Below are positions 23,975-61,797 of a stretch of 64,000 bases of DNA, one piece after another (position 1 is the first letter of the stretch; each line of letters begins with the position of its first letter). The DNA lies in assembly GCA_964016885.1 (NCBI GenBank), contig OZ024755.1:38812001-38876000 (forward strand), given 5' to 3'. Position numbers and translations under genes: made by a program. Below the pieces are notes generated by a model. It saw only the letters and a list, made by a program, of their open reading frames with translations, did no database searches and was not told the DNA's origin. Origin of the DNA: Eledone cirrhosa. Taxonomy: Eukaryota.

Positions 23975-24286
23975 ATATGTATATATATATATGTATGTAT
24001 ATATATACATACATATATATATACATACATACACACATATATATATATATATATATATACATACATATATACATATATACATACTTATATACATATATAC
24101 ATACATACACATATATATATATATACATACATATATACATATATACATACATACACATATATATATATATATATATATACATACATATATACATACATAC
24201 ATACATATATACATACATACATACATATATATACATACATATATACATACATACATACATATATATACATACATACATATATATAC

Positions 24287-24320
<34 letters not shown>

Positions 24321-24449
24321 ACATACATATATATATATACATACATATATATATACATACATATATACATACATACATATATATATACATACATATATAT
24401 ATACATACATATATATATACATACATACATACATATATACATACATACA

Positions 24450-24482
<33 letters not shown>

Positions 24483-24717
24483 CTATATATATACATACAT
24501 ACATATATATACATATATATATACATACATATACATATATATATATACATACATATACATATATATATACATACATATACATACATATATATATACATAC
24601 ATATACATATATATATACATACATATACATATATATATACATACATATACATATATATATACATACATATATATATACATACATATATATATACATACAT
24701 ATATATATATATACATA
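23975..24717. repeat. (TA/CATA)n compound microsatellite
   Basis: Direct reading. Confidence 0.97.
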
Positions 24718-24891
24718 TTTGGCGGCACAGCTACTTTTTGTCGATTTATTATTATTATTATTTTAGATCGATGTGGACGAACTGTGGTAAAATAATTAAT
24801 ATTCTTCAGTCTGGCTAACTTTCTTTTGCAATATAAATACAGATATGTTGGTATCTGTTTCATCATATATATTACTCATATATATTACTTT

Positions 24892-25573
24892 TATACATAT
24901 ATACATATATATATACATAGATACATATATATACATATATATATACATACATATATAAATACTTATATATATACATACATATATATATACATACATATAT
25001 ATATACATACATATATATATACATACATATATATATACATACATATATATATACATACATATATATATACATACATATATATATACATACATACATATAT
25101 ACATACATATATATATACATACATATATATATACATACATATATATATACATACATATATATATACATACATATATATATACATACATATATATATACAT
25201 ACATATATACATACATATATATATACATATATATATACATATATATATACATATATATATACATACATATATATATACATACATATATACATATATATAT
25301 ACATACATATATATAAACATATATATATACATACATACATATATATAAACATATATATATACATACATATATATATACATATATATATACATACATACAT
25401 ATATATAAACATATATATATACATACATATATATATACATATATATATACATACATACATATATATATACCTATAAACATACATACATATATATATATAC
25501 CTATATACATACATACATATATATATACCTATATACATACATACATATATATATACCTATATACATACATACA

Positions 25574-25611
<38 letters not shown>

Positions 25612-25722
25612 CAGATATATATATACATACATACACATATATACATATATACATATATACATACATATACATATATATATACATACATACATATACATAT
25701 ATATATACATACATACATATAT
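24892..25722. repeat. (TA/CATA)n compound microsatellite
   Basis: Direct reading. Confidence 0.97.
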
Positions 25723-25769
25723 ATAAAGTTAAATAAAAGTCAAATGATTAAAATTTAGCTTCGTTTATT

Positions 25770-25824
25770 ACTGCTATATATATTTCAGTGACAGCCATCT
25801 TTGGCTGTGACCTCTTCAGGCAGT
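25770..25824 (-). ncRNA. Minimal type-I hammerhead ribozyme (mirror copy)
   Basis: Exact reverse complement of 26497-26551. Confidence 0.85.
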
Positions 25825-26496
25825 TTGAATTAGTATGGTATAGACAAGTACATATGTTGTTTAGGTGAATGATATTGTCAATACTCTGATATGCCCAGTT
25901 CCTTGTTGGGTTGTTAATTCACTGGGGAACTGGAGTCATATGAATTCAAACAAACGAATTTTAGTGTCACAGGTCCCCTTCTCCTCTCATTGGTCAGTTA
26001 TTAGTGTTGTCATTGTTGGAGTTAGCTTAAAAATTGATAAAATGGTAGAAGGGACAAGGTGTTGAAGGAACAAAATATCAAAAAATGTGTCAAACTTCCC
26101 ATTGTTCAGTTCTGAGAGCATTCCTCAGTCAGAAGTCTATAGAATTCTTTCTGTGGGAGCCTCACCACAGAAAGAATTCTATAGACTTCTGACTGAGGAA
26201 TGCTCTCAGAACTGAACAATGGGAAGTTTGACACATTTTTTGATATTTTGTTCCTTCAACACCTTGTCCCTTCTACCATTTTATCAATTTTTAAGCTAAC
26301 TCCAACAATGACAACACTAATAACAGACCAATGAGAGGAGAAGGGGACCTGTGACACTAAAATTCGTTTGTTTGAATTCATATGACTCCAGTTCCCCAGT
26401 GAATTAACAACCCAACAAGGAACTGGGCATATCAGAGTATTGACAATATGATACAGCTAAACAACATATGTACTTGTCTATACCATACTAATTCAA

Positions 26497-26551
26497 ACTG
26501 CCTGAAGAGGTCACAGCCAAAGATGGCTGTCACTGAAATATATATAGCAGT
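26497..26551 (+). ncRNA. Minimal type-I hammerhead ribozyme
   Basis: actgc-CTGAAGA-ggtcacagcca(aaga)tggctgtcact-GAAA-tatatATA-gcagt: stem I actgc/gcagt, core CUGANGA and GAAA, stem II with one C.C mismatch, palindromic stem III, AUA cleavage triplet. Confidence 0.85.
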
Positions 26552-26700
26552 AATAAACGAAGCTAAATTTTAATCATTTGACTTTTATTTAACTTTATTT
26601 TACACTACTCCGGAGTAACCAAACCAACCTGCGCACTTCGTCGAGTGCTCCAGCCTGCATACTGAGGTGTTGGTATACAACCAACATAAACTCAAAATCT

Positions 26701-29128
<2,428 letters not shown>

Positions 29129-29449
29129 CATGGTGGCTGCCAACTCGTTTTTGAGTACGGCCACTACTTTATATCCATGTAGGAGAACCTTTACCGATGC
29201 GCTGAACGAGTGTGACTTTTTAGTCCAGCCAGCGACTTGAAACCTCTGGTACAAACACTACACTTGTGACAATTATTGACACATAGTGCTGGGCCCATGG
29301 CACCCTGTGACGACAAGTGCAGGGAGATCTCCAGATATAAAGCAATGCCTGGGCCATGAAGCTTTTATAGTGAGCAAAGGCACTGCACAAAGCCAGTCCC
29401 ACTCTCTTAACCAAGATGATATTTACCAAAAAGAAGAACAAGTCAACAT
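29129..29449 (-). mobile_element. Non-autonomous RTE-derived element, 3' ~320 bp (copy 2)
   Basis: Closely similar to 23364-23685; joined directly to the R4/Dong fragment. Confidence 0.8.
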
Positions 29450-31180
29450 GGATGGGTTGAAAAAAAATCTTGACCTGGTTACAATGTTCTCAAAGTATAT
29501 AGGAATGGAGTTTGGCCAAGATAAATGCTCATACATGACTGTAAAGTGGGGAAAAACAACCCAATCTAGCAACATTGTCATCAATGGTCTAACTGTTTCA
29601 CCGATATCTGATGAGGACTGCTACAGATACCTGGGGATAGATGAGAACATATCCTATAATGGTATCTGTAATAAAGAACGCGTAACCAGGGAATACTACA
29701 CCCGATTAAGAAAGATTTGGTCATCGGAACTCTCTGCGCAAAACTAAACAGTGGCTTATAATGTGTTTGCTGTGACTGTCCTAACACCAACGTTTGGAAT
29801 ACTCAATTGGACGATAGACGAAATCCGAGCAGTTGATGTTGTAACTCGAAAAATATTGAACAACACCGGAAACTTCCACATCAACAGTGACATAGACCGC
29901 CTTTACTTGAAACGTAAGCAGGGAGGCAGAGGCCTAACATCAGTCCAGACAACATTTGAATGTCGCATCATATCTCTCCGACAACATATACGAACCTCGA
30001 AGCGTAGGAGACCGTCTCTCGAAAAAGTCTATCTGCATGAAACAGATAAGATCATGAGAGTTGGGAAGGAACTCCTCGAGAGATATTCCCTGTGTGATAA
30101 TCAAAAACTCACACCCAGGGATGTCACTCAGCAGTATCGCAGTGAATCCATGGATGAAAAACTGCATGCCTATCAGCAAAAAATCATGCATGGATATGTT
30201 GCCAGGAAGCTCCAGAGTGAGAGTAATATAGATAAGAAAAGTAGTCTATCTTGGACCAACAACCGCTATATTGGCTCCCACTTTGAAGGATACGCTTTTG
30301 CAATCCAAGAACAGGAGTTTAGCACGAAATACCTGATTCACAAAAGAGATAGGGATGCAGGCAAAACACGTAGATGTGATAACAAGTGCAGACTCTGCAG
30401 AACTACCATCAAGGATATCACCCATGTCATCAGCAGCTGTCCAAAGATGTCATCGCGGTACTATTTACCTATGAGGCATGATGTAGTGGCCAAAACACTG
30501 TACAATGCAATCCGTAGAAAAGATAGCCCCGATAATAAACACATTAAAAGCTACAACAATGTGGAAGACATACATATACATAATATGAAAGAATACTGGT
30601 GGAATGTTCCAGTAAAAACCCCCAATAAAATGCAGGCATAACAGACCAGATATTATGATATGGGACAGGGAAAAGAAAGCATGCACAGTAGTGGAAGTTA
30701 GCTGCCCAGCAGATGCCAATATAATATCAAAGATTAGTGAAAAGGAGAATATTTATGCAGAACTAATGAGACATCCGCAGATACTCCACCCTGATTCATG
30801 CCTGTGATTATTGGGGCACAGGGGTATGTTAGTAACTGCCTCAATACAAATCTTGAGAAGCTGGGCTTCACAGGAACAGAAAGAACACACCTAGTTAGGA
30901 AATTACAAGTACAATCCATTAATGGAACAGTGAAAATATGTAAAACATTCCAAAAATTTTGCATCTAATAACTGCATATACACATGTACAGATACAAAGC
31001 ATATACATATGCACCCATACAACTCAAAACATACACATCCATATCTACACATGCATGCATGCATACATAATCTACCTAGTTGATGTTGTGTAAATTCCAA
31101 TGAGAGAGTCTTGTGTCTATGTTAGAAAGAGACTCTCTCTATTGGAAAAAAATTTGCGAAATTATAAAACCAGAAGGACA
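29448..31180 (+). mobile_element. 5'-truncated R4/Dong-clade non-LTR retrotransposon (RT C-terminus, CCHC knuckle, restriction-like endonuclease), inactivated
   Basis: GMEFGQDKC, YRYLG, DIDRLYLKRKQGGRGL, EGYAFAIQEQ, CRLC..ITHVISSC, RHD, RPDIMIWD...VEVSCP motifs; premature stop and frameshifts; 3'UTR ends in a CATA/TA tract. Confidence 0.9.
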
Positions 31181-37580: not shown

Positions 37581-38610
37581 TTCCAAGATCAGTCCTGATA
37601 AAGAGGACATCTCACTGAATGTGTTCCTATAATGTCCAACACATTTTCATTCCGACATAATTTATTAATGACAACATTGTTTTCTTCCGTTTCTGATAGA
37701 GGAGTGTGTTATTTAAAGAAGATTTAGCTATCATGAATAATCAAAAGGTAGAGTAAAGTATCAGCTATCGAAATATGTAGACTTCATTAGTTTTACAAAC
37801 GGAATTTCCCTTGAAAAAATCCGAGTTGCTAAGATATACCACCTTGGCAGGTGTGTAGAGCATGTCCCTCCTTTCTCCTCACCCCTTTTTTTCATTATCA
37901 AGTTTTGTTCTCTCATTCCTGTTTATCATGAAAATAAAATATTCAAAATTTATTTCTGTCTGAATAAATTATACAAAACGATTCTGATCAGCCGTTCACA
38001 GCTTCTGCCTTTGAGAATAACATCAACACTCTCAATAAACCTTTCCCAATTAAATCGATGATTCAGAAAAGAGAGAGTATCATTATAAAATATATAAACC
38101 TGTTCCTATTCGCCCAACAAAGGTGAAAGTGCTCAAACATTTATAAATCCTTAATCTCACAACAGGAACGTTAGACTTTCCCCGCTGTGATCCTGATTGA
38201 AGGAGATGTAAATATATCGTTTAAGATCTCTCGATAGAAAGATATGAAATGAAGATTCCCAAATTATCGTAGTTTATGCAGAAATCATGGAAATTGCAGT
38301 CGGATTAGTGCCCTATGTTAGGAGGTGCCTTAAGGCTTCACCGAAAATCTTTTACAGTTCATTATGTTTTCTATAGGATATGTGGAGAAATCGCTGTTTA
38401 AATAAATATTGGGTGACCAAGATTTCGTAGGGGGAAATACAGTTATCGACAAGAGAAATATCGATCTCAGTCGTTTTAGATAAAAGTTGTTCAAGTTGTT
38501 GGATCAACGGAAGACCCTACTCATGAAATTAACATGTAGGTGCCTTAGCATTCCACAAACTAGTGTATTTGTAGTGTAATTCTCAGAGATTCAGTGAGAC
38601 AGACACCCAG

Positions 38611-40430
38611 AGTCACTGTGTGTGACAAAGCTAGTCCTTGAGACAGTCACACAGAGAGACAGTGTGTGACAAAGCTAGTCCTTGAGACAGTCACACACAG
38701 AGACAGTGTGACAAAGCTAGTCCTTGACTCAGTCACACAGAGAGACAGTGTGTGACAAAGCTAGTCCTTGACTCAGTCACACAGAGGGACAGTGTGTGAC
38801 AAAGCTAGTCCTTGAGACAGTCACACAGAGAGACAGTGTGTGACAAAGCTAGTCCTTGAGACAGTCACACAGAGAGACAGTGTGTGACAAAGCTAGTCCT
38901 TGAGACAGTCACACAGAGAGACAGTGTGTGACAAAGCTAGACCTTGAGACAGTCACACAGAGAGACAGTGTGTGACAAAGCTAGTCCTTGACTCAGTCAC
39001 ACAGAGAGACAGTGTGTGACAAAGCTAGTCCTTGAGACAGTCACACAGAGAGACTGTGTGTGACAAAGCTAGTCCTTGACTCAGTCACACAGAGGGACAG
39101 TGTGTGACAAAGCTAGTCCTTGAGACAGTCACACAGAGAGACAGTGTGTGACAAAGCTAGTCCTTGAGACAGTCACACAGAGAGACAGTGTGTGACAAAG
39201 CTAGTCCTTGACTCAGTCACACAGAGAGACAGTGTGTGACAAAGCTAGTCCTTGAGACAGTCACACAGAGAGACAGTGTGTGACAAAGCTAGTCCTTGAG
39301 ACAGTCACACAGAGAGACAGTGTGTGACAAAGCTAGTCCTTGAGACAGTCACACAGAGAGACAGTGTGTGACAAAGCTAGTCCTTGACTCAGTCACACAG
39401 AGAGACAGTGTGTGACAAAGCTAGTCCTTGAGACAGTCACACAGAGAGACAGTGTGTGACAAAGCTAGTCCTTGACTCAGTCACACAGAGGGACAGTGTG
39501 TGACAAAGCTAGTCCTTGAGACAGTCACACAGAGAGACAGTGTGTGACAAAGCTAGTCCTTGAGACAGTCACACAGAGAGACAGTGTGTGACAAAGCTAG
39601 ACCTTGAGACAGTCACACAGAGAGACAGTGTGTGACAAAGCTAGTCCTTGACTCAGTCACACAGAGAGACAGTGTGTGACAAAGCTAGTCCTTGACTCAG
39701 TCACACAGAGGGACAGTGTGTGACAAAGCTAGTCCTTGAGACAGTCACACAGAGACAGTGTGTGACAAAGCTAGTCCTTGAGACAGTCACACAGAGAGAC
39801 AGTGTGTGACAAAGCTAGACCTTGAGACAGTCACACAGAGAGACAGTGTGTGACAAAGCTAGTCCTTGAGACAGTCACACAGAGAGACAGTGTGTGACAA
39901 AGCTAGTCCTTGAGACAGTCACACAGAGAGACTGTGTGTGACAAAGCTAGTCCTTGAGACAGTCACACAGAGAGACAGTGTGTGACAAAGCTAGTCCTTG
40001 AGACAGTCACACAGAGAGACAGTGTGTGACAAAGCTAGTCCTTGAGACAGTCACACAGAGAGACAGTGTGTGACAAAGCTAGTCCTTGAGACAGTCACAC
40101 AGAGAGACAGTGTGTGACAAAGCTAGTCCTTGACTCAGTCACACAGAGAGACAGTGTGTGACAAAGCTAGTCCTTGAGACAGTCACACAGAGAGACAGTG
40201 TGTGACAAAGCTAGACCTTGAGACAGTCACACACAGAGACAGTGTGTGACAAAGCTAGTCCTTGAGACAGTCACACACAGAGACAGTGTGTGACAAAGCC
40301 AGTCCTTTAGACAGACACACAGTGACACAGTATGTGACAAAGCCAGTCCTTTAGACAGATACACAGAGAGACAGTGTGACAAACCAGTCCTTTAGACAGA
40401 CAGTGTCGTTTAGACAGACACAGTGTGTGT
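38611..40430. repeat. 44-bp minisatellite (AGACAGTCACACAGAGAGACAGTGTGTGACAAAGCTAGTCCTTG), ~40 units, embedded in a SINE copy
   Basis: Direct reading; the flanks 38545-38610 and 40430-40540 are the left and right parts of the ctcagggagattcag..tttgaattacag SINE. Confidence 0.97.
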
Positions 40431-40827: not shown

Positions 40828-43800
40828 TGTCTGGTCTCTCCTTCTTTCATCTAACGTGTTATCCCGTCTTATATCCCATTTTATATCCAGTCTACCGTAT
40901 ACCTGGTCTCTTATCCGTTCATCTAACGAGTTATCCCATCTTATATCCAGTCTACCGTATACCTGGTCTCTTCTCCTTTCATCTGACGTGTTATCCCATC
41001 TTATATCCAGTCTACCATATATCTGGTCTCTCCTTTCATCTAACGTGTTATCCTATCTTATATGCAGTCTACCATATATCTCGTCTCTCCTTTCATCTAA
41101 CGTGTTATCCCATCTTATATCTAGTCTACCATATATCTCGTCTCTCCTTTCATCTAACGTGTTATCCCATCTTATATCCAGTCTGCCATATATCTCGTCT
41201 CTCCTTTCATCTAACGTGTCATACTATCTTATATCTAGTCTACCATATATCTGGTCTCTCCTTTCATCTAAGGTGTTATCCCATCTTATATCCAGTCTAC
41301 CGTATACCTGGTCTCTTCTCCTTTCATCTAACGTGTTATCCCATCTTATATCCAGTCTACCATATATCTGGTCTCTCCTTTCATCTGACGTGTTATCCCA
41401 TCTTATAACCAGTCTACCATATATCTGGTCTCTCCTTTCATCTGACGTGTTATCCCATCTTATAACCAGTCTACCATATATCTGGTCTCTCCTTTCATCT
41501 GACGTGTTATCCCATCTTATAACCAGTCTACCATATATCTGGTCTCTCCTTTCATCTAAGGTGTTATCCCATCTTATATCCAGTCTACCGTATATCTGGT
41601 CTCTCCTTTCATCTAAGGTGTTATCCCATCTTATATCCAGTCTACCGTATACCTGGTCTCTTCTCCTTTCATCTGACGTGTTATCCCATCTTATAACCAG
41701 TCTAGCATATATCTAGTCTCTCCTACCATATAACGTGTTATCCCATCTTATAATCCAGTCTACCATATATCTGGTCTCTCCTTTCATCTAACGTTACCCC
41801 ATCTTAAATCCAGTCTACCATATATCTGGTCTCTCCTTTCATCTGACGTGTTATCCCATCTTATAATCCAGTCTACCATATATCTAGTCTCTCATTTCAT
41901 ATAACGCGTTATCCCATCTTATAATCCAGTCTACCATATATCTGGTCTCTCCTTTCATCTAAGGTGTTATCCCATCTTATATCCAGTCTACCATATATCT
42001 GGTCTCTCCTTTCATCTAACGTGTTATCCCATCTTATAATCCAGTCTACCATATATCTGGTCTCTCCTTTCATCTAACGTGTTATCCCATCTTATATCCA
42101 GTCTACCATATATCTGGTCTCTCCTTTCATCTAACGTGTTATCCCATCTTATATCCAGTCTACCATATATCTAGTCTCTCCTTCCATCTAATGTGTTATC
42201 CCATCTTATATCCAGTCTACCATATATCTAGTCTCTCCTTCCATATAACGCGTTATCCCATCTTATAATCCAGTCTACCATATATCTGGTCTCTCCTTTC
42301 ATCTAACGTGTTATCCCATCTTATATCCAGTCTACCATATATCTGGTCTCTCCTTTCATCTGACGTGTTATCCCATCTTATAACCAGTCTACCATATATC
42401 TGGTCTCTCCTTTCATCTGACGTGTTATCCCATCTTATAACCAGTCTACCATATATCTGGTCTCTCAATTCATCTAACGTGTTATCCCATCTAATAACCA
42501 GTCTACCATATATATAGTCTCTCATTTCATCTAACGTGTTATCCCATATTATATCCAGTCTACCATATATCTGGTCTCTCATTTCATCTAACGTGTTATC
42601 CCATCTAATAACCAGTCTACCATATATATAGTCTCTCATTTCATCTAACGTGTTATCCCATCTTATATCCAGTCTACCATATATCTGGTCTCTCATTTCA
42701 TCTAACGTGTTATCCCATCTTATATCCAGTCTACCATATATCTAGTCTCTCCTTTCATCTAAGGTGTTATCCCATCTGATATCCAGTCTACCATATATCT
42801 AGTCTCTCATTTCATCTAACGTGATATCCCATCTTATATCCAGTCTACCATATATCTAGTCTATCCTTTCATCTAACGTGTTATCCTATCTTATACCCAG
42901 TCTACCATATATCCAGTCTCTCCTTTCATCTAACGTGTTATCGCAAGTCATATCCAGTCTACCATATATCTGGTCTCTCCTTTCATCTAACGTGTTATCC
43001 TATCTTATATCCAGTTTACCATATATCTGGTCTCTCCTTTCATCTAACGTGTTATCCTATCTTATATCCAGTCTACCATATATCTAGTCTCTCATTTCAT
43101 CTAACGTGTTATCCCATCTTATACCCAGTCTACCATATATCTAGTCTCTCCTTTCATCTAACGTGTTATCCCATCTTATATCCAGTCTACCATATATCTA
43201 GTCTCTCCTTTCATCTAACGTGTTATCCCATCTTATATCTAGTCTCTCATTTCATCTAACGTGTTATCCCATCTTATATCCAGTCTACCATATGTCTAGT
43301 CTCTCCTTTCATCTATCGTGTTATCCCATCTTATATCCAGTCTACCATATATCTGGTCTCTCCTTTCATCTAGCGTGTTATCCCATCTTATATCCAGTCT
43401 ACCATATATCTGGTCTCTCCTTTCATCTAACGTGTTATCCCATCTTATATCCAGTCTACCATATATCTGGTCTCTCCTTTCATCTAACGTATTATCCCAT
43501 CTTATAACCAGTCTACCATATATCTGGTCTCTCATTTCATCTAACGTGTTATCCCATCTAATAACCAGTCTACCATATATATAGTCTCTCATTTCATCTA
43601 ACGTGTTATCCCATCTTATATCCAGTCTACCATATATCTGGTCTCTCCTTTCATCTAACGTGTTATCCCATCTTATATCCAGTCTACCATATATCTGGTC
43701 TCTCCTTTCATCTATCGTGTTATCCCATCTTATATCCAGTCTACCATATATCTGGTCTCTCCTTTCATCTAACGTGTTATCCCATCTTATATCCAGTCTA

Positions 43801-44005
43801 CCGTATACCTGGTCTCTTCTTTCATCTAACGTGTTATCCCATCTTAAATCCAGTCTACCATATATCTAGTCTCTCATTTCATCTAACGTGTTATCCCATC
43901 TTAAATCCAGTCTACCATATATCTAGTCTCTCATTTCATCTAACGTGTTATCCCATCTTATATCCAGTCTACCATATATCTAGTCTCTCCTTTCATCTAA
44001 CGAGT
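40828..44005. repeat. 57-bp minisatellite (TCTGGTCTCTCCTTTCATCTAACGTGTTATCCCATCTTATATCCAGTCTACCATATA), ~55 units
   Basis: Direct reading; 57-60 bp variants. Confidence 0.97.
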
Positions 44006-44334
44006 TATTTCGTCTTGAATTCAATTTTTCTAACATCTTTTCAAATATTATATTTCCTTTATTTTTTGCAAGGGGTCTCACTTCTCAGAAAATAAATGTG
44101 AATACATTAAAATGAAGAATGGCTCTACTTAGTAGCTAAATATTATATAATACTGTATTTTTTTTTTATGTATAAAAATCAATGTGACAAGAGTGCTCGA
44201 TAAATTGTAGCATAGCTCGTGAACATATGCCTATATTTAACAATTTAAACATACAAGAAACCACATGTTATCTATGTAGAGCGATTAAACCCAATATCAT
44301 CAGTCTTATGAATCTTAATATTCCGTGCTGTAAA

Positions 44335-47434: not shown

Positions 47435-47502
47435 TTTATAACATCTAACATATAGGAGCTATATAGATATACACAGTTTTATAACATCTGCTAACATACA
47501 GG

Positions 47503-47543
<41 letters not shown>

Positions 47544-47589
47544 AGCTATATAGATATACACAGTTTTATAACATCTGCTAACATACAGG

Positions 47590-47632
<43 letters not shown>

Positions 47633-47678
47633 AGCTATATAGATATACACAGTTTTATAACATCTGCTAACATACAGG

Positions 47679-47739
<61 letters not shown>

Positions 47740-47810
47740 GTTTTATAACATCTAACATATAGGAGCTATATAGATATACACAGTTTTATAACATCTGCTA
47801 ACATACAGGC

Positions 47811-47898: not shown

Positions 47899-47907
<9 letters not shown>

Positions 47908-47945
47908 ATATTAATAAATGGAAACTATATTTATAAAACCATAAT

Positions 47946-48011
47946 TATTTTATTATATATATTTCAAGGGCGACCAAGCTAAATTATGGTGCGCTTTCAT
48001 CAGATAAAATA
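47946..48011 (-). ncRNA. Minimal type-I hammerhead ribozyme (mirror copy)
   Basis: Reverse complement of 48132-48197. Confidence 0.78.
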
Positions 48012-48131
48012 CAGATTTGTTTTATAAATAAATATTGACATACCCGGAAAAAAGACAACCTCAACCGTTGAAATTCGCTGGATAGTGTCTTTTTTCCGGG
48101 TATGTCAATATTTATTTATAAAACAAATCTG

Positions 48132-48197
48132 TATTTTATCTGATGAAAGCGCACCATAATTTAGCTTGGTCGCCCTTGAAATATATATAATAAAATA
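48132..48197 (+). ncRNA. Minimal type-I hammerhead ribozyme
   Basis: tattttat-CTGATGA-aagcgcacca(taatttagct)tggtcgccctt-GAAA-tatatATA-ataaaata: 8-bp stem I, canonical core, bulged stem II, palindromic stem III. Confidence 0.78.
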
Positions 48198-48328
48198 ATT
48201 ATGGTTTTATAAATATAGTTTCCATTTATTAATATATTGTATATTTACTCTACTAACTTGATGAGTGCTTTATATCAGTTATAAATTTTTTTAAGCTTGT
48301 TGAATCCCAACAAATTAAATATAACCTC

Positions 48329-48331
<3 letters not shown>

Positions 48332-48639: not shown

Positions 48640-48643
<4 letters not shown>

Positions 48644-48893
48644 CGAAACATAAGTCAATTGCTTGAACTCATAATCCTTTATTTACTGCTATATATATTT
48701 CGATGATAGCCATTGACTGGCTATGACCTCATCAGGTAGTTAGTCAGTTCTTAGATATGCCAGCTCTGTGTTTATAGTGTTGATGGTATCAGAGTCTTGG
48801 GACATATGAGCTTGTTAGGAGTAATTTAATGTTGGAATAATCTTAATTCTCATTGGTCAGTTTTTAGATGCTAGTAGGGTTGGTATTTGACTT

Positions 48894-48895
<2 letters not shown>
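48640..48895 (-). mobile_element. Solo Penelope-like pseudo-LTR fragment related to 25723-26700
   Basis: Shares the hammerhead, gatatgcc and ctcattggtcagtt motifs in the same order; bounded by (TA)n on both sides. Confidence 0.7.
48685..48740 (-). ncRNA. Minimal type-I hammerhead ribozyme
   Basis: Minus: actac-CTGATGA-ggtcatagcca(gtcaa)tggctatcatc-GAAA-tatatATA-gcagt; one stem I mismatch; compensatory change in stem II relative to 26497-26551. Confidence 0.8.
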
Positions 48896-48941
<46 letters not shown>

Positions 48942-49542
48942 AAATAACAAAACGAAATTAAATTTCGTTTCGTTTGTAACTCACTTTTGTATGACTGACG
49001 CTTAAACAATTAAGTTAAAAATGTACATCTACATATGCATACTGAAATACTAGTGTGTATATGAATACACACACGTATACATATGTAGGTGTACCAAGTC
49101 TTTCACTGGTCGCTTTACAGTGAGCGGCCCAGCTATTCTGTATGTAAACACACAGACAAACCGGTTTTTAGAGTCATACTGGTTTTTGAGGAAACACCTT
49201 TCCTCTATTCTCCAGAAAGCCAGACAAGGAATATTGAACTAGTTTCGTTGTTGTTACAACTCATCAGCAATATTTACCTATCTACCGGCCTTTCTGGAGA
49301 ATTGTAAAAGCACATATCGTTATATGCTTTTTCTATATATATATTTATTTATTTATTAAAATAACAGATTAAAGTATAAGCAAAGAATCGCTACTTTCAC
49401 CCTTAACGGGATCTTCTGAAACTAACAAAGTCAATCTGTAAACGCAGAAGTGGATATTTCAAAAAACGTTGCAACCGGAGGAAGACAGGAAGACGATACT
49501 TTGGTTCGAGCTCTCTTTGGATTTTAGTCTTCAAATTTATTA

Positions 49543-50097: not shown

Positions 50098-52445
50098 AAG
50101 AGTAGCCACTCCTGTGTGGTCAGACGTGAAGGAGGACAAGGTACGACGGCCAGACGGTAGTAGATGACGGACGAGATATACACGTTCGCCACCTCTGCCC
50201 GACCTTTCAGGGATAGCTTCTCCTCGGCCGCTTTCTGGGTGAGAAAGTCCACCTTGCTCGTAACCTCATCCAAGTCTTTGTTTATCTGGAGGTCCTGACG
50301 AATCCAGACTCCTAGCCAGGGGCCTCATTTACCTTAAAAATGTGAGGGGGACAAACCAACATTTGTTGATTCTTAAAGGAGTATGTTAGTATTGCTTACG
50401 GTGCCTTTCCCGGACCCTATCACATAAATAAAATTTTACACTAATTAAATTTTATATATTCAAATGAAGTTAGAATATAAAACAAATAAAAAGAATTTAT
50501 TATATCAAATAAACAAAAAATAAAATATAGATGTTTCAATTTAACTGGTCCATCTGTTCAGCACTGTATGACGCTGTTAGACGGCAAATGGCAGCCTCTC
50601 CAGGTGCTGAGCTTCAGACCTACCAACGTTTTTGGTTAATCTTTGCTCTTGTTACCACTTCGTATTCCCAGAGAGCGGTGCCAATTATCCCAATGTGTTT
50701 GGCGTTCGACACCAATACGGTGGCACCTTTGACATATGCTGACACGGACTTCCCACATCTTATTATGCGCGGGTCACCCCCTCAACGTCACTTATTTGTG
50801 TAGTAATGGCTCGAGAGTTAATACATACAAAAGGGAGGAGAGAGGACCACATTAGCGGACCAAGAGAATGATGTTGAACAGTTCTGAAAGGTTATCGTTT
50901 AGTCTAATCACAGAGCAGATGTCACTGTGCAATGCAGCGATCCTTCCTCTGGAATAAAACCCGAAACTGCTGCCTTGGAGACTGCCGCCAGGTAGCAATG
51001 GTCGGCCCTATCAAAAGCTTTCGATTGAACTAAGTTGATCAGGCCGCCACCCGTGTCAGGTTCCTTAGTGATCCTCTCTATGATGCATCGGATGAGGTGG
51101 ATGGGTCTGTATGGAATGTCGCATGTTTGTGCTTCCCCTACAAGACCACAGACCACAAGCAACACCCGTACTGCCAACATTTTAAACACCGCATTTAGTA
51201 GAGCTATTGGCTTAAAATTATAAATATGTTCCCCTTTGTTCGGGTCCTTTCTCAGCAGTGCCACCGTTCCTCGTCCCACAGAACTAGGAATTCTCCCATT
51301 CTGCTGCAACTTGCAGTAGATGCCAAGAGGTCATCGAACAAGCCTGACATGAACACGTAAACCTTGTAGGCCAGACCATCCAAACCCGGCGATTTGCCCC
51401 TCGTGCATTCAGTCATCATCTTCCGTACCTCAGCGGCTTTTATCAGCTTTTCACAGAATCCAGTCTCCGTGGTCGAGAGGCGCGTCAGGCCGTCGAGGTA
51501 CGCACTAAAGTTCATCTCGCAATCAAGCCCACCACCGCTCCCATACAACTAAGTGAAGTGCTGCTGAAAAACCGCACACATCCTCTAGGGATCGAGTAAC
51601 ATGCGCCCGTCGTGGTCCGCCAAAGACCGGATTGTGGCTTTGTTTCCACGACACACCTCCACCACTCGGGCCAATAAAATAGCAGTGAAGGGTATGCTTT
51701 CAGGCTAGTAGTTGACAGGGGCAGAAAGACTTGATTTCTTCAGGCCCCTTGAGTTCTTCCTAACGTTCCGCTCTTTAGTGTTAGTGGGCGACTGAAACGG
51801 TATCATAGATGCACGCTGGGAATGTGTGAGACTAACTGATGGGGGAGGAGGGTGTAAAATTCTCGCAAACCTGCTCAGACATTTCCACTTGTCTGTACCG
51901 ACAAGATTTCCTGAATGTGACAATGTGGACATGGAAAAAACGATGTCCACATTGTCACATTCAGGAAATCTTGTCGGTACAGACAAGTGGAAATGTCTGA
52001 GCAGGTTTGCGAGAATTTTACACCCTCCTCCCCCATCAGTTAATCTCACACATTCCCAGCGTGCATCTATGATACCGTTTCAGTCGCCCACTAACACGAA
52101 AGAGCGGGACGTTAGGAAGAACTCAAGGGGCCTGAAGAAATCAAGTCTTTCTGCCCCTGTCAACTACTAGCCTGAAAGCATACCCTTCACTGCTGGTCAC
52201 GTCCTATACTACCTACTTACTTTCTGGTTCCATATCGTGAGATCCAAGCCTTCTCGAAACAATACAGTGACTCCGCCTTCTGATCCTGGACGGTTCGGAG
52301 ATACGTACACCTCGTAGCTGCCAAACATGGGTGTGAAGGCTCGAGACTCGGAAATTCTGGTCTGGCTAATAGCCACCACATCTATGTTTAGTAACCTGAT
52401 GTCATTGAGGGGTAGCCTTGCTACCAAGACGACTCCAAGCCACGT
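50098..52445 (-). mobile_element. Decayed Tx1/L1-clade LINE ORF2 (endonuclease and RT), interrupted by an unclassified insertion (~50317-50805) and a fold-back inversion
   Basis: IDVVAISQTR, GGVTVLF, VLVGD.N (APE); GKSPGLDGL, NFKPIALLN, QSKAFDR (RT); KLSLKGRAEVANVYISSVIYY. Confidence 0.85.
51681..52194. repeat. Long inverted repeat, 252-bp arms (51681-51932 / 51943-52194), 10-nt spacer
   Basis: Arms reverse-complementary with about 3 mismatches; mirrored ORFs 51705-52049(-) and 51826-52170(+). Confidence 0.95.
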
Positions 52446-53770: not shown

Positions 53771-55320
53771 ATGGTTTCATTTATTGGCCACAAGGGCCGA
53801 TATATAGGGGGACAATTAATAGACGGGGACAGTGGGGGTTTACATAAAGATCGAGTAAAAAATAGGAAAACAATAACAATAAACAAGAAAAATACAACAA
53901 TGAAAATCCCTAATAGGAGGGGGACGGGGTGACCACCCAGGGTTGATTCAGGTCCACCGCCTGACGCTTCGAGGGCACCCCTCTCTTCCTCAAATTAACC
54001 AGCCTACAGGTCCATGATCAGAGTAGGCCCACTCACACGGGCCATTCTCGCCACATTCACCCACCTTTTAGTAAATGTACTGGAGGGCAGCACTTCTCTC
54101 TCCACCCTCACCTTCCTTTCCAAGTGAAACTTAAAAAAGTTAATGAGGGATTGGCCGAAGAGAAAAGTGTCTGTCTTCAGTCCTTTCAATGGTCCACCAT
54201 ATAACCTCTTTCGCTACTGCCACCAGACAGAAGAAAATTACCTGCCCTTCCTCGCCAAAAGAAGGCGGCGGGTCGATCTTCACTATGGACTCGGCCGATA
54301 GCCGGATCCGTTCCACACGCGACAACAGCTGTTCGACATAACTACACAAGTCAGTAATGCACGGACACTGGACAAGTGCGTGCATAATGGATTCGTCGCT
54401 CTGCGCGCATCTCGGGCAGGTCTGTCTGACAGCACTTCCGTGCCTGTAGAGTTTATCCCGAACCGGCAGTACCGGTTGTCCAACGTCGCAGGCTTGAAAG
54501 TTCTCCGGAACAGACTGGTCAGTTCGACTTTGTCGGCGCTCAGAGCCTCTCCGAGTGCGTCATCGCACTCGCCCACGACTAATCCTCTATAGAACTCCAT
54601 AAGAAGTTGAAGAAGAGCCGTTCCAACTTGGCGAGGCGCGGACGGGGGCAAGGCACGACGGCTAGGTGGTAGTAGATGACGGACCCGATGTACGCATTCG
54701 CCGCCTCCAACCGCCTATTCAGTGACAGCTTCCTCACAGCCCATTTCTGGGTGGGACTGGCTACCCTGCTCGTCATATCGTCCCAAGGCTCATGCCCCTG
54801 GAGGTGTGGTTCGAACCAAACCCCGAGCGACTTCACCGGTCCATCCGTCCAGCACCCAACGACGCTGTTGGATGACATGGACTTGCCTCTCGTAGGGCAG
54901 ACCATCCAAACTGGGTGACTTGCACCTCCTGCAGCCGACTAGGACATCCTGAATTTTAGCTGGAGTTATTGGCCTTTCACAGCGTTCAGCGTCGGCCGTC
55001 GAGGTCGGACTGAAGTCCGCTACCGTCTCTGACTCACCACTCTCCCGAACAACCCAGAAAAGTGCCGGCGAAAGGCCTCACACATACGCCTGGAATCGCT
55101 CAGCTCTTGTCCGTCTCGGTCCATCAAAGACTGAATTGTGGTTTTATTTCCATGCTGCGCCTCTGGCACGCGGGCTCATCGAACAGCTTTGAGTCCCTCG
55201 TTTCTCAAAGCACGCGCCTTAGCCCCTGACAATGCAGCCTTCGTGTTTCACATTGAAGGAATGGTCTAATGTCATTCCCACGTCAGTTGCAATGCCACCA
55301 TAAATAGCCTCGTCTAATTT
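53771..55320 (-). mobile_element. Tx1/L1-clade LINE with internal deletions, retaining the ORF2 C-terminus and 3'UTR
   Basis: PVKSLGVWF, KLSLNRRLEAANAYIGSVIYY, Cys/His knuckle (CPRC..HALVQCP), AKEVIWWT, FTKRW; AATAAA near the 3' end. Confidence 0.85.
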
Positions 55321-55454
55321 AGCTTGAGGGCAAAGACTAAAGTCTTTTGTCCGTTTTGAAACAAAGAAATATTAATAACAAAAGGATTTAAACACGTAAA
55401 AATAACAAACTTACTCGAGCTCACGATAATACGTCCTTTGACTTCACCGACCAA

Positions 55455-55785
55455 TAATAATTGTTTCTACTTTTGGCACAAAGTCAGCAATTACCCCAGT
55501 GTATTACTGGTACTTTATTTTATCGACCCCGTAAGGATGAAAAGCAATGCTAACCACGGCGGGATTTGAACTCAGACCATAAAGGGCCGTAACTCGTTGC
55601 TGCCAAGCATGGCGTCCGACCCTCTACCGATACTGCCAATCCACCGCCCTAATAATACTAATAATTGTTTCTACTTTAGGAACAAGGCCAGCAATTTAAA
55701 GTGGATGGGAAAGTCGATTAAATCGACCCCAGTGCATTACTGGTGCTTTATTTTATCGCCCCTGTAAGGCAAAGCTAACCCACAA
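55455..55785 (-). mobile_element. Two tRNA-SINE copies
   Basis: Same SINE motifs. Confidence 0.85.
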
Positions 55786-58603
55786 GTCTCAGACCCGTAC
55801 AGCAGCACAGACTCCACTACAGCAACAAAAAGACAGATCTTCAGGTCTTTACGAAGGTCCGACTTCCACACTGATCTCAAGCTGTAGCACGCCGCCCAGG
55901 CTTTGCTCTTCCTCTCAACCACATCATCCTCTGTTTTGCTCCCAAATGCAGGAAGTCCTCAACCAATTCTAGCGGCTTCCCGCCTACATTCATAATCTTG
56001 TCTGGCTTCTCAACATTCTCTACCAGATATTTCGTCTTAGTCTCATCCATTCTCAGCCCCACACTCATCGACACAGTCTCAACCTCCTGCATCAAATCCT
56101 CTGCCTCCTTCACTGTATTTGTCACCAGAATTATGTCGTCAACAAAATAAGCATCTGAAATCGTTTTAACCTTAACTCTCCTGCTCTGAACCGGTGCTAC
56201 AGTAAAGCCCAAGTCCTGGTGTTTCTCCAGTGCAAGGCTCATTCAATAGTCCACTACGATGATACAAAGGTAGGGAAGCAATGTATCTCCCTAGAGCACT
56301 CCAGCCAGTATCTCAAAGTACTTCGTCATCCCATCAGGTCTAATTACTTGGACTCTGGTGTTGGTGTAGAGCAGTGATATCAGGTCCACTATCTTCTTGG
56401 GGATTCCATAAGCCTGTAAGATCGTCAACAGGCAGTGACGGTCCACAGAATTAAAGGCCTTCCTGAAGTCAATGAAACCATGACAGCAGGAAGGCTCTTT
56501 GCTCTAGCTCCCTCTAATATCCTCCTCAGGATCAGGATGATGATTGGTGGTTGATCTTCCCTCTCTGAAGCCGTTCTGGTTGTCCCTGAGCTTCTTCTCC
56601 ATCTCGGACTGGTTCCTGTTAAGAATCATCCTGTTGAGGGTCTTTGCCACATGTGACATCAGTGAGATCCCCCTATAGTTGTTGGTGTTTGAGAGATCTC
56701 CCTTCTTTGGCACTGGGACGATGTTACTGATCCTCCACTGATCCCGGGCAACTCCTTTCTCCAGTGCCTGGTTACAGAACTCCAGGGTGATATCAAAATC
56801 ACACCTCTTCATCACCTCTGATGCCACTCCATCTTCTCCGTGGGACTTGCCCTCCTTGATCTTCTCCTTCGCTCTCTGAAGTTCCTCTCTCAATATCCAG
56901 TTCCTCAAACAGTGGCCTGATCTTCCCGGTGTGCTGTGCTGTGGCTCTCCTAGTAAGGTCCTAAAATGGTCCAGCCATTTCCTCTTCCTACCCTCAGGCC
57001 TTGACTCAAACCCCCTCTCTTCCTACTTGTGATCTCGTTAATGATCGCCCAGCTCTCTTTACCTTTACACCTGTCAACCACTCTTTCCATACTCATGATC
57101 TCCATCAGAACCTCCTCTCTGGCCGCAGTGTAAGAGGTACAGAGTACTTCTTTCTTCACCTCCACATTCTCCTTCCTCTCCTCTGTAGGATCAACATGGA
57201 ATTGGTCCTTTGCAGCTCTCAGATGTTTTCTCGCTGCACACACACTTGGGTCTGCAGAGCTGTCGTCCTTCCTCTTCCTCTCTCTACTCGATTCAAGGGT
57301 CTCACTTGCTTCCGCCTCGTCACACTCTCCTCAGTCCCTCCAATCTCTCTCTCCTCTGCCTCTCAACACAGAGCACTGAACCTGTTCCTCACTTCCACTG
57401 TGAACCGCTCCTGTAGCTTATCATCTTCCTTGAAAACACCCCAGTCATAGATTGTTCTTTCTTAAGCTCACCCGGACCTCACTCATAACAAGCCGGTAGT
57501 CACTGCCCAGTGTACTGAAATAGTTGTATGGTTCTGTGTTCAGAACACAATTCTGTCACTTTTTCCTCGCCAGAATGAAATCAATCTGGGACTTGGTCAG
57601 GTGAACATCAGAAATGTAGGTCCACATCTTCTCCAGATTCTTCTTAAACCTTAGGTTGGTTGCCTTGAAGTTCACCTCCAGCAGGGTGTCCCTCAGTAGT
57701 CTGCCGTTTCGATTGGTGTTGTTATGGAAGTACCAGCAAGGATCTTCACTGCCCTCCTTACTCAGATGTGCATTGAAGTCCCCCAGAACAAGCAGGATGT
57801 TGTGTGCTTGTGTGGTATTGACAGCTCTACATTTCCTCATGGAACTCCTCTGCACTCACATCACTGTCCCTCGCGGTTGTACTATAGGCTGAGATGACTG
57901 TCAGCCCTGGCGTTCCACTGAAAGTCACCCACAAAACTCGCGGGGAGACAGGTATGATCTCCTTCAATAATAGGTTGCCTCTTGTACTCAATACAAAACC
58001 CACTCCTCCTACTGCGGCATAAGTTGTGTTCTTCACTGCCGATGTGGTGATGAGCTGGCTCCTCTTTCCAATCATCACACTCCTCACGGGCTCATCATGT
58101 AGGATCCTGTGTTCTTGGATCGCAAGGATCTGCATACCACTCTCCTCGAACAGATGACCCAACTCCTCTCTCTTCTCCAGCGTCCGAACTGTCCTCACAT
58201 TTTAAGTACCGATTTTAATGGCTCTTCTGTAGGACAAAACTGTATTCTTTATATTTGTCTCAGAGACAGCGGATCCATCATCCACTGGCCCTCCCTGTGG
58301 CTCTAAACCAGCAGATTCATAACCACCAGACTGCTCCTTGACAGTGTAGTTAGGGGTTCTAACTCTAGTGCTGTTAAATATACTCTCCAAGGCCCTTTTC
58401 AATGGCTAACAACACCTTACTGGCACCACTGCAATAAGGTAATTATTTAACCCATAAATGGGGCCCTAACAGGTACTATTACTCCGGGCCAGAGCAGACC
58501 TGGGAGTTATGACAACTAAGGGGTAACTCCACATTCCCCACAGCTCCTGAACTCCCGAAATGGAGCCTTGCCACTGGATGTAGTTTAATATGATACCAGG
58601 ATA
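55780..58603 (-). mobile_element. RTE-clade LINE with probable 5'UTR, APE endonuclease and RT; 3' end lost; many stops and frameshifts
   Basis: NVRT, ILAIQEHR, GGVGF, LGDFNAH, QIDFIL (APE); PKKGDLSNTNNYRGISL, QNGFREGRST, FIDFRKAF, FVDD, ESVLLYGSET (RT). Confidence 0.9.
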
Positions 58604-60129: not shown

Positions 60130-61797
60130 GGGTATGGTTACAATATTGCCAACAAGAAAATAATCCTTCTACTTTATATGGAAGATCTAAAGCTATATCA
60201 CAAAGACAATGACGAGCTGTAAGTTCTTTTGTGAACAGTAAAAATCTTTAGCGATGTCATCAGGATGGAGTTTGGACCGATAAGTGTGCCCAAGCCACTT
60301 TCTTTCAAGAAGGGGAAGCTTATCAACTCAGTTGAATTAGATGGTGAAATAGCCATAAAGGAACTTGAGCAGGAACAAATTATAAATACTTTGGGATTAA
60401 TGAGGGCTCTGGCATTCGGCATGCAAGTATAAAAGAAAGAATAAGGAAGGAATGTTACAGGAGGGTACGCGCAGTTCTGAAATCAGAACTAAAGGTGTTC
60501 ACCATAAATTCTTTGGCAGTTCCAGTTGTCACTTATAGTTTCGGTGTGTTGAACTGGAACATGAGTGAAATTAAAAGAATCGACTCCAAAATCCGTAAGT
60601 CTCTGACTTGTAATAGAATGCACCGCCCGAAAGCAGATGTGGATCGTCTTTACCTTCCTAGAACTCAAGGAGGCCGTGGCCTGATCCAATTTGAACTTAC
60701 CTATAAGACCACTACCACTGGACTGGTCAAATACTCTGAAACAACAAACGACTGTATGCTAAAACTTGTTGAAAAACATTAGAGAAGTAAGAAGCTTCAT
60801 TCTATCTTCAATGAGAGTAAAATAATATGCCACTGATCTCATGCTTAATCCCCAGATTTGACAGAGTAAGGAAACTGTTGCAATTGATGCTGCTAAGCAC
60901 ATAAAATTAATGGCAAAAGCAAAAGGGCAAGAGCAATTAGCATCAAAGTGGGAGCAGAAACCTCTGCATGGCAAATATGTGACTAGTAGCAAACATGATG
61001 TTAACCAAAAGAACACCCATCAGTGGCTACGTAGCTCAAGGCTAAAATAAGAGAGCGAAGGCTTCATCTTAGCTGCCCAAGATCAAAGCTTACTGACACA
61101 GAATTACCAGGCCAACGTGATGAGAAATGGAGTAAATCCAAAGTGCCGATTCTGCAATGTTGAGGTTGGAACAGTGGACCACCTAATTTCTGGATGTAAA
61201 GTGCCCCAGTAGAGTACAAATATAGACACTGGGTAATATGTCGGCATTACAAAATCAAAGCTGCTGACAAGTGGTACAAACATTACCCTGAGGCTGTAAC
61301 TGAAGGAGAAAAAGTAACGATTCTTTGGGATTTTCCTGTACATACTGACCGGACCATAAAAGCTGATAGACCAGATATCATTGCAAAAGACCAACATATC
61401 AAGGTCTGTTTATTGATAGATATGAGCATCACATGTGATCACAATATCACAGCAAAATAATTTGACAAGCTAAGAAAATATAAAGATCTGCTCATTGAAA
61501 TTGAACCAATGTGGTACCTCAGGGCCGTTACAACACCAGTGATTGTGGGAGCACTGAGAATGATCAAGAAAGGAAGAGGACAGTATTTGAGAATGATGCC
61601 CGGTTTACCCTCGCTGCAAGAGGCGCAAACATTGTTATAACTGGTATTGCACACGTATAGAGAAGAGCACTATCTCTCTGAAAATTATAAACAATTTGGT
61701 GTGTTAACTGGCTTACCAATGTATGCAGTGGGTTTATTGCCCGAGGTGTCAGGAAGACGGCATATAACAGAAACAATACTGAAGGAAAAGGAAAAAC
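60130..61797 (+). mobile_element. Second 5'-truncated R4/Dong-clade element, heavily decayed, ending in (AAT)n
   Basis: YMEDLKLY, GMEFG, DVDRLYLPRTQGGRGL, EGFILAAQDQ, CRFC..VDHLISGC, DRPDII..LIDMS motifs. Confidence 0.9.

Follow-up and report, generated by a model that had tools for sequence, protein, structure and literature searches.

A palindrome with mirrored hammerhead motifs, likely a dead-end insertion of a Penelope-like repeat end

Penelope-like insertions and the layout of the palindrome

The closest described systems are insertions of Penelope-like elements (PLEs). Minimal hammerheads, unlike canonical ones, are tied to PLEs (PMC7229834), and dual minimal motifs with a palindromic helix III, lying ~100–700 bp apart on opposite strands, have been described in metazoan PLEs (Cervera and De la Pena 2014, PMC4209133), with one further dual case in a supplement legend of that paper. 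Insertions comprising an inverted 5′-truncated copy, a one-sided tail of 30–40 bp ascribed to endonuclease resolution and a bias towards (TA)n have been reported (PMC8557442), the insertion bias being described for Neptune, Hydra and Naiad, and head-to-head junctions have been read as self-priming on an antisense template (PMC3846280). In PAc, the Poseidon of Anolis whose ORF starts at stem II, both target strands are cut and extended, two reverse transcription start sites bound the tail, and hammerhead cleavage was unnecessary for insertion in the in vitro work presented (PMC11167929). Recently active PLE families have been reported from Octopus vulgaris (PMC13282606), which bears on the palindrome only if its host is a cephalopod. 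Retrozymes are defined as tandem units (PMC7229834; bioRxiv 10.64898/2026.07.22.740005), and the latter source proposes that those of animals derive from pseudo-LTRs.

The window analysed here, a stretch of 64,000 nucleotides, had been described in a sequence-only reading as containing a palindrome of 434-bp arms with four mismatches and an 8-nt loop, its right arm running ~100 bp further and both its ends falling in TA microsatellite. Alignment of the window to itself confirmed this description: the arms pair over 434 bp, the extension measured 104 bp, and both ends, asymmetric by that length, lie within TA/CA repeats (Table 1). RNA folding predicted hairpins within the tail. At all four mismatched positions (25865/26456, 25868/26453, 25871/26450 and 25996/26325) the + strand has the same purine in both arms, and three of the four fall within 7 nt; a same-base outcome at all four has a chance of 1/81 at equal rates, and clustered damage or an error in the consensus could account for it. 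Judging from variants in public sequencing runs, the left arm matches the family letter at three of the four and the right arm at the fourth; the two arms are thus not simple duplicates of each other.

In every feature tested, the layout matches that of an EN+ PLE insertion. As reported for Penelope/Poseidon, Neptune, Nematis and Hydra (PMC8557442, PMC3846280), the element is 5′-truncated and abuts its inverted copy head to head, with a one-sided tail and a (TA)n target lacking a readable target-site duplication; unlike the insertions described there, the locus has neither a direct partial tandem of pseudo-LTRs nor an ORF. What is unusual against published PLEs is the tail, 104 nt here and 87 nt in a second mirror pair of the window vs 30–40 bp, together with the four same-base arm mismatches. 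As in PAc (PMC11167929), two fixed ends downstream of the hammerhead bound a tail with a predicted stem-loop in an AT-rich target, although in this family the end points lie about 100 nt apart, unlike those of PAc. The link that had been drawn to PLE pseudo-LTRs and their minimal hammerheads is supported, and membership of the family among PLEs is likely. A Naiad PLE was rejected as a candidate, since a complete hammerhead motif is present at the palindrome and Naiad is described as being without a canonical one.

Table 1. Positions of the palindrome, its motifs and related features in the window
Feature	Position	Strand	Remark
Left arm	25723..26156	-	Inverted, tail-less copy of the element 3′ end, from arm alignment
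Right arm	26165..26598	+	5′-truncated 3′ end of an abundant repeat, non-coding and pseudo-LTR-like
Turnaround	26155..26166	+	8-nt loop 26157-26164, closing GG/CC
One-sided tail, 104 bp	26599..26702	+	Between family short end (~26602) and long end (~26697-26702)
TA/CA microsatellite	23975..25722		Left part of inferred target; repeat tract reaches 25725
TA/CA microsatellite	26703..29128		Right part of inferred target
CCAAT, single	26328	+	Within right arm
Minimal type I hammerhead motif, right copy	26497..26551	+	Predicted cut after A26546
Minimal type I hammerhead motif, left copy	25770..25824	-	Predicted cut after 25775
AATAAA, right	26552..26557	+	Directly after right stem I
AATAAA, left	25764..25769	-	Directly after left hammerhead; mirror of 26552-26557
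Second mirror pair	47899..48331		Different AT-rich family; (TA)n both sides; 22 kb away
Second pair, arms	47899-48057 / 48086-48244		159 bp, 0 mismatches, 28-nt spacer, 87-bp right tail
Second pair, hammerhead motifs	47946-48011 and 48132-48197	- and +	120 bp apart
Solo tail-less relative of arm	48640..48896	-	Hammerhead motif 48685-48740; (TA)n both sides
Further type I hammerhead motif	49230-49274	-	7-bp stem I, palindromic ACUAGU stem III
Third long inverted repeat	51681-51932 / 51943-52194		252-bp arms, 3 mismatches, 10-nt loop

Hammerhead motifs and their predicted state

Each arm had been said to carry a complete minimal hammerhead followed immediately by AATAAA, and a descriptor scan bore this out. 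The two motifs, 672 bp apart on opposite strands, contain the CUGANGA core, GAAA and UH together with helices I and II. In the right copy, stem I has five Watson-Crick pairs, and the core CUGAAGA (26502–26508) is followed by stem II (26509–26534; 10 of 11 positions paired, with a single C.C mismatch), GAAA (26535–26538) and the palindromic stem III AUAUAUAU. The latter is an 8-bp self-complementary helix with a predicted intercopy duplex of −3.2 kcal/mol, and its letters are identical in the solo relative (48640–48896) and the second family (47899–48331). When the descriptor was run on 20,000 dinucleotide shuffles of 26165–26705, a loose motif was found in 25, stem I of at least 5 with stem II of at least 3 in one, and a motif of the observed quality in none. 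The Rfam search that had been proposed for the region returned no match to a hammerhead family at E ≤ 1 on 24500–28000 or at E ≤ 10 on 26400–26690, where matches were limited to microsatellite-driven miRNAs and chance matches.

The G10.1–C11.1 pair of hammerheads is highly conserved, not invariant. At the palindrome, a G.U pair takes the place of this usual base of stem II; a C at 26534, which restores it, makes up 41–47% of the depth in three public runs (X1, X6 and X17) and none in a fourth (X4). By a rough count among 40 of the 49 variant rows, the hammerhead holds this one variant vs ~4 expected, which is a weak signal. In an alignment of four rows, two of them the palindrome arms and the others the solo relative and a loosely aligned distant family, 89% of cells are paired and 5 of 17 pairs are changed on both sides (one from the solo relative, four from the distant family).

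In common with the motifs of PMC4209133, ours have a short helix I, a long helix II, a palindromic helix III and an AU-rich flank, and the spacings of dual motifs, 672 and 120 bp in the window, resemble the ~100–700 bp reported there, where motifs are mostly single and in truncated copies. Unlike those described, the palindrome copy has G.U at the base of stem II and no extra, unpaired base between A9 and G10.1, and shares with the solo relative a C.C mismatch in the 11-bp stem II. An ATG within stem II, as in PAc, opens just 16 codons at the palindrome (26523–26573, +), unlike in PAc, and 14 codons at the equivalent place of the solo copy; it may be the start of an intron-split or decayed ORF.

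Folding of the 983-nt read-through RNA of either strand gave a pairing probability of 0.0 for stems I and II. The full palindrome RNA of each strand has a predicted folding energy of about −798 kcal/mol, and in the predictions all prefixes tested are already zipped arm to arm. When the right arm is folded by itself, stem II forms in its seven inner pairs (0.75–0.99) and stem I does not (0.03–0.04), and a fold lacking stem III is favoured by 3.4 kcal/mol over the active monomer fold. In the experiments cited, such minimal motifs did not cleave as monomers and cleaved at a low level as dimers (PMC4209133), and minimal hammerheads are reported to require a second copy on the same strand. Neither strand of the palindrome bears two copies, and cleavage is therefore predicted only in trans. 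Because this second copy is absent and the read-through RNA would zip before the ribozyme is made, the mirrored ribozymes of the locus are predicted to be muted. The suggestion that the hairpin competes with self-cleavage holds on paper only for read-through RNA; a transcript starting inside one arm would be without the antisense.

The repeat family and related copies

The repeat family to which the arm belongs is abundant. Part of 26100–26705 was contained in 15 of the 19 listed public runs, and nine runs, from six organism codes and five studies, held at least 0.28 of its words. Four runs (X1, X4, X6 and X17) were mapped onto 26120–26705 at 85% likeness (2715 X1 contigs and 8395 X17 reads), with X10–X15 (share <0.2) excluded. 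Summed depth in X1 rose from 0 at 26120–39 and 1.8e3 at 26140–59 through 1.0–3.5e4 over 26160–26359 to 7.7–8.6e5 at 26500–59, with 2.5–4.4e5 in the tail bins; summed depth is not copy number, and other families also land in the hammerhead bins and inflate the gradient. The shape is as expected of a 5′-truncated retroelement. In X6, a contig matches from 26155 on and is preceded by 27 differing letters, and five X1 contigs carry a variant of the loop letters with other sequence before them, identifying the loop and the GG at 26155–56 as native and the element as extending upstream.

The fold-back joint was absent from all mapped contigs and reads of the four runs, which possibly derive from individuals other than the source; as contigs also lose rare and palindromic sequence, all that this absence tells is that the family does not commonly carry the joint. 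Depth over the left stub was 0 in the three contig sets, and the only raw reads there, four in X17 that join 26120 to 26317, fit an indel variant of the family. Copies run into (TA)n at 26602 in eight contigs of three runs (six in X1, one each in X4 and X6), and TA-rich letters lie behind 26697 in 300 X17 reads, such that two fixed end points of the family match the two arm ends of the palindrome. Indels of the family occur around 26316, where X6 has an 18-nt insertion, and in X4, X6 and X17 loose ends before 26317 resemble 26175–26203, which suggests candidate variants in which ~110 bp (26204–26316) are lacking or rearranged. Many X17 reads also cease matching at two places, 26490–26493 (9–12 nt ahead of the core) and 26569, past which their letters are mixed; either the hammerhead module alone is common to several families, or truncations pile up there.

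Within the window, the solo relative shares 76% identity with the palindrome arm over 97 nt (BLAST, E 3e-11) and keeps the core and the C.C mismatch. Its stem II starts from a G–C pair, a single pair has both of its bases changed, and in stem I one pair is broken. The palindrome, the second pair and the solo relative all have both ends in TA-rich microsatellite. Their tail-less ends meet it 49–50 nt past the predicted cut (three of three in the window) and their tailed ends 142–153 nt past it (two of two). The further motif at 49230–49274 belongs to a unit that looks unrelated and is bordered by (TA)n runs near 48940 and 49550. The third inverted repeat (51681–52194) contains no hammerhead motif, and its mismatches are ordinary, unlike the same-base ones of the palindrome. 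Pfam gave no match on it; we take its translation, by eye, to resemble an L1/Tx1-type endonuclease, and by eye the repeat appears to be an internal fold-back in a LINE fragment. Fold-backs in the window thus also arise by other routes.

No Pfam domain of interest was found in six frames over 550 nt of the arm, in agreement with its earlier description as an ORF-less unit. Across the window, 108 of the 115 listed ORFs were scanned (seven were excluded as repeat-derived), of which six had Pfam matches, all at 54–58 kb: RVT_1 (three), zf-RVT, Exo_endo_phos_2 and DUF6451. The 15 read-through frames gave only four weak matches (E 0.03–0.18), and GIY-YIG families were found in 0 of 108 ORFs and 0 of 15 frames. 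The window as a whole is repeat-rich, animal-type DNA, with a satellite, long TA/CA microsatellites and decayed reverse transcriptase fragments at 54–58 kb. Decayed LINE-like coding fragments lie at 29280–30641 (+), 54143–58201 (−) and 60369–60782 (+). The satellite (1–21539) spans 21.5 kb in about 1200 copies of a strongly G/T-skewed 18-bp unit, and minisatellites lie at 38595–40399 (44 bp), 40872–44008 (57 bp) and 47450–47778 (87–89 bp), the last containing (TA)n and adjoining the hammerhead cluster. A SINE-like repeat at 52444 is, we presume, of cephalopod type. Among metagenome contigs, a hammerhead pattern scan gave 14 loci, none with helices by eye, and BLAST gave only 18-nt motif matches; viral contigs and prokaryote genome contigs held no relatives.

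Origin of the palindrome

We consider it very probable that the palindrome is a 5′-truncated end of a hammerhead-motif repeat, likely a PLE pseudo-LTR, joined head to head to its own inverted copy, and that a TA/CA microsatellite received it in what was likely one dead-end insertion. Observed are the geometry, the motif, both end points of the family and the native loop sequence. As for the steps, an element endonuclease supplied in trans would nick both strands of the microsatellite, and the right-hand end would prime reverse transcription at the far start site of the family, keeping the 104-nt tail. The cDNA would stop about 550 nt in, fold back on the 2-nt GG/CC match around the native 8-nt loop and copy itself. 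Joining of the left-hand end would take place at the family's near start site, which lies about 50 nt past the predicted ribozyme cut. On this course of events the mirrored ribozymes would be passengers. This order, which we infer, combines ideas from PMC11167929 and PMC3846280. The explanation is supported by depth that falls towards the centre, by native sequence upstream of the loop, by the two family end points with their constant distances from the predicted cut, by a second family with the same layout 22 kb away, by the shuffles and paired changes of the motif and by the published PLE layouts; counting against it are a joint seen in the window alone, an RT or GIY-YIG ORF linked to the family in none of the frames scanned, the null result with Rfam, the G.U pair and missing extra base of this copy, tails longer than those published and the third inverted repeat, a fold-back without a hammerhead motif.

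The palindrome had been proposed as a mobile unit in itself, a proposal at odds with family sequence that continues past the loop and a joint present in no mapped contig or read; this native continuation, with the absence of the joint from the runs, makes one dead-end insertion the best reading. A palindrome that is mobile or functional, as a cassette of ribozyme plus antisense whose 434-bp hairpin feeds Dicer or ADAR and gates self-cleavage, could draw on the predicted fold of about −798 kcal/mol, which abolishes the ribozyme stems on either strand, and on siRNAs from Penelope inverted repeats in transformed Drosophila (PMC3681739), with which the palindrome shares the capacity to give dsRNA from the element's own sequence. 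Native copies, however, continue with other sequence, the left stub has the depth of 0 in three contig sets and the four X17 reads described above, the asymmetric ends lie within microsatellite, and the layout recurs in another family, as a by-product would. We consider such a mobile or functional unit very improbable, and both the mobile-palindrome and the regulatory readings are unsupported. A MITE or foldback DNA transposon was rejected as a candidate, as the ends differ by 104 bp and other copies are not palindromic at the centre.

The same read evidence bears on whether the left arm is a fold-back artefact of assembly or library, or a fold-back of host repair unrelated to insertion: the joint is without an independent read, three long inverted repeats occur in 64 kb and, oddly, the four mismatches are all same-base pairs. 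But in a chimera made by fold-back the tail and the flank to its right would be duplicated too, whereas the left arm stops at the family's short end inside microsatellite, like the second pair and the solo copy, and the family letters at the mismatches make neither arm a plain copy of the other, leaving this origin hardly credible. Somewhat closer to the proposed insertion is a non-autonomous, retrozyme-like parasite that borrows PLE enzymes, with the palindrome still a fold-back insertion and no ORF-bearing master copy. The family tolerates indels around 26316, and the arm, non-coding over the whole 550 nt, resembles animal non-LTR retrozymes in this, in its type I hammerhead and in its abundance, which would agree with the proposed derivation of animal retrozymes from pseudo-LTRs (bioRxiv 10.64898/2026.07.22.740005). 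Against it, no tandem units and no array of head-to-tail hammerhead units occur in the window, family sequence extends upstream of 26155, and minimal hammerheads are tied to PLEs (PMC7229834); unlike head-to-tail retrozymes, the head-to-head palindrome is predicted to give no unit-length cut product. We regard such a parasite as unlikely.

The known anatomy of PLE insertions explains the palindrome well, and paired opposite-strand hammerheads were already published in 2014 (PMC4209133). Neither the family nor the exact model was described in the open-access texts covered on Octopus hammerhead ribozymes and Penelope fold-back insertion, and four 10-mers of the arm had 0 matches in the supplement of PMC8557442, a weak test given its wrapped lines. 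A further, unlikely idea is that hairpin stubs are frozen two-ended Penelope insertions, in which two RNAs paired via the palindromic helix III would prime both nicked (TA)n strands ~100 nt apart and the longer cDNA would fold back to the shorter, the hammerhead acting as an RNA dimerisation device and not as a nuclease; if true, the tail of this lineage would be about three times the published length.

Taken alone, the palindrome is one more truncated Penelope-type insertion and matters little. Its use is as data on how Penelope integration proceeds once priming has taken place: the fixed ends (~50 and ~150 nt past the predicted cut), the native loop and the 2-nt match at the turnaround provide predictions for the in vitro Poseidon system. 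A Penelope inverted repeat as a source of siRNAs is not a new idea (cf. PMC3681739), and should the density of two stubs in 64 kb be representative, such insertions could be a large putative source of hairpin RNA in the genome.
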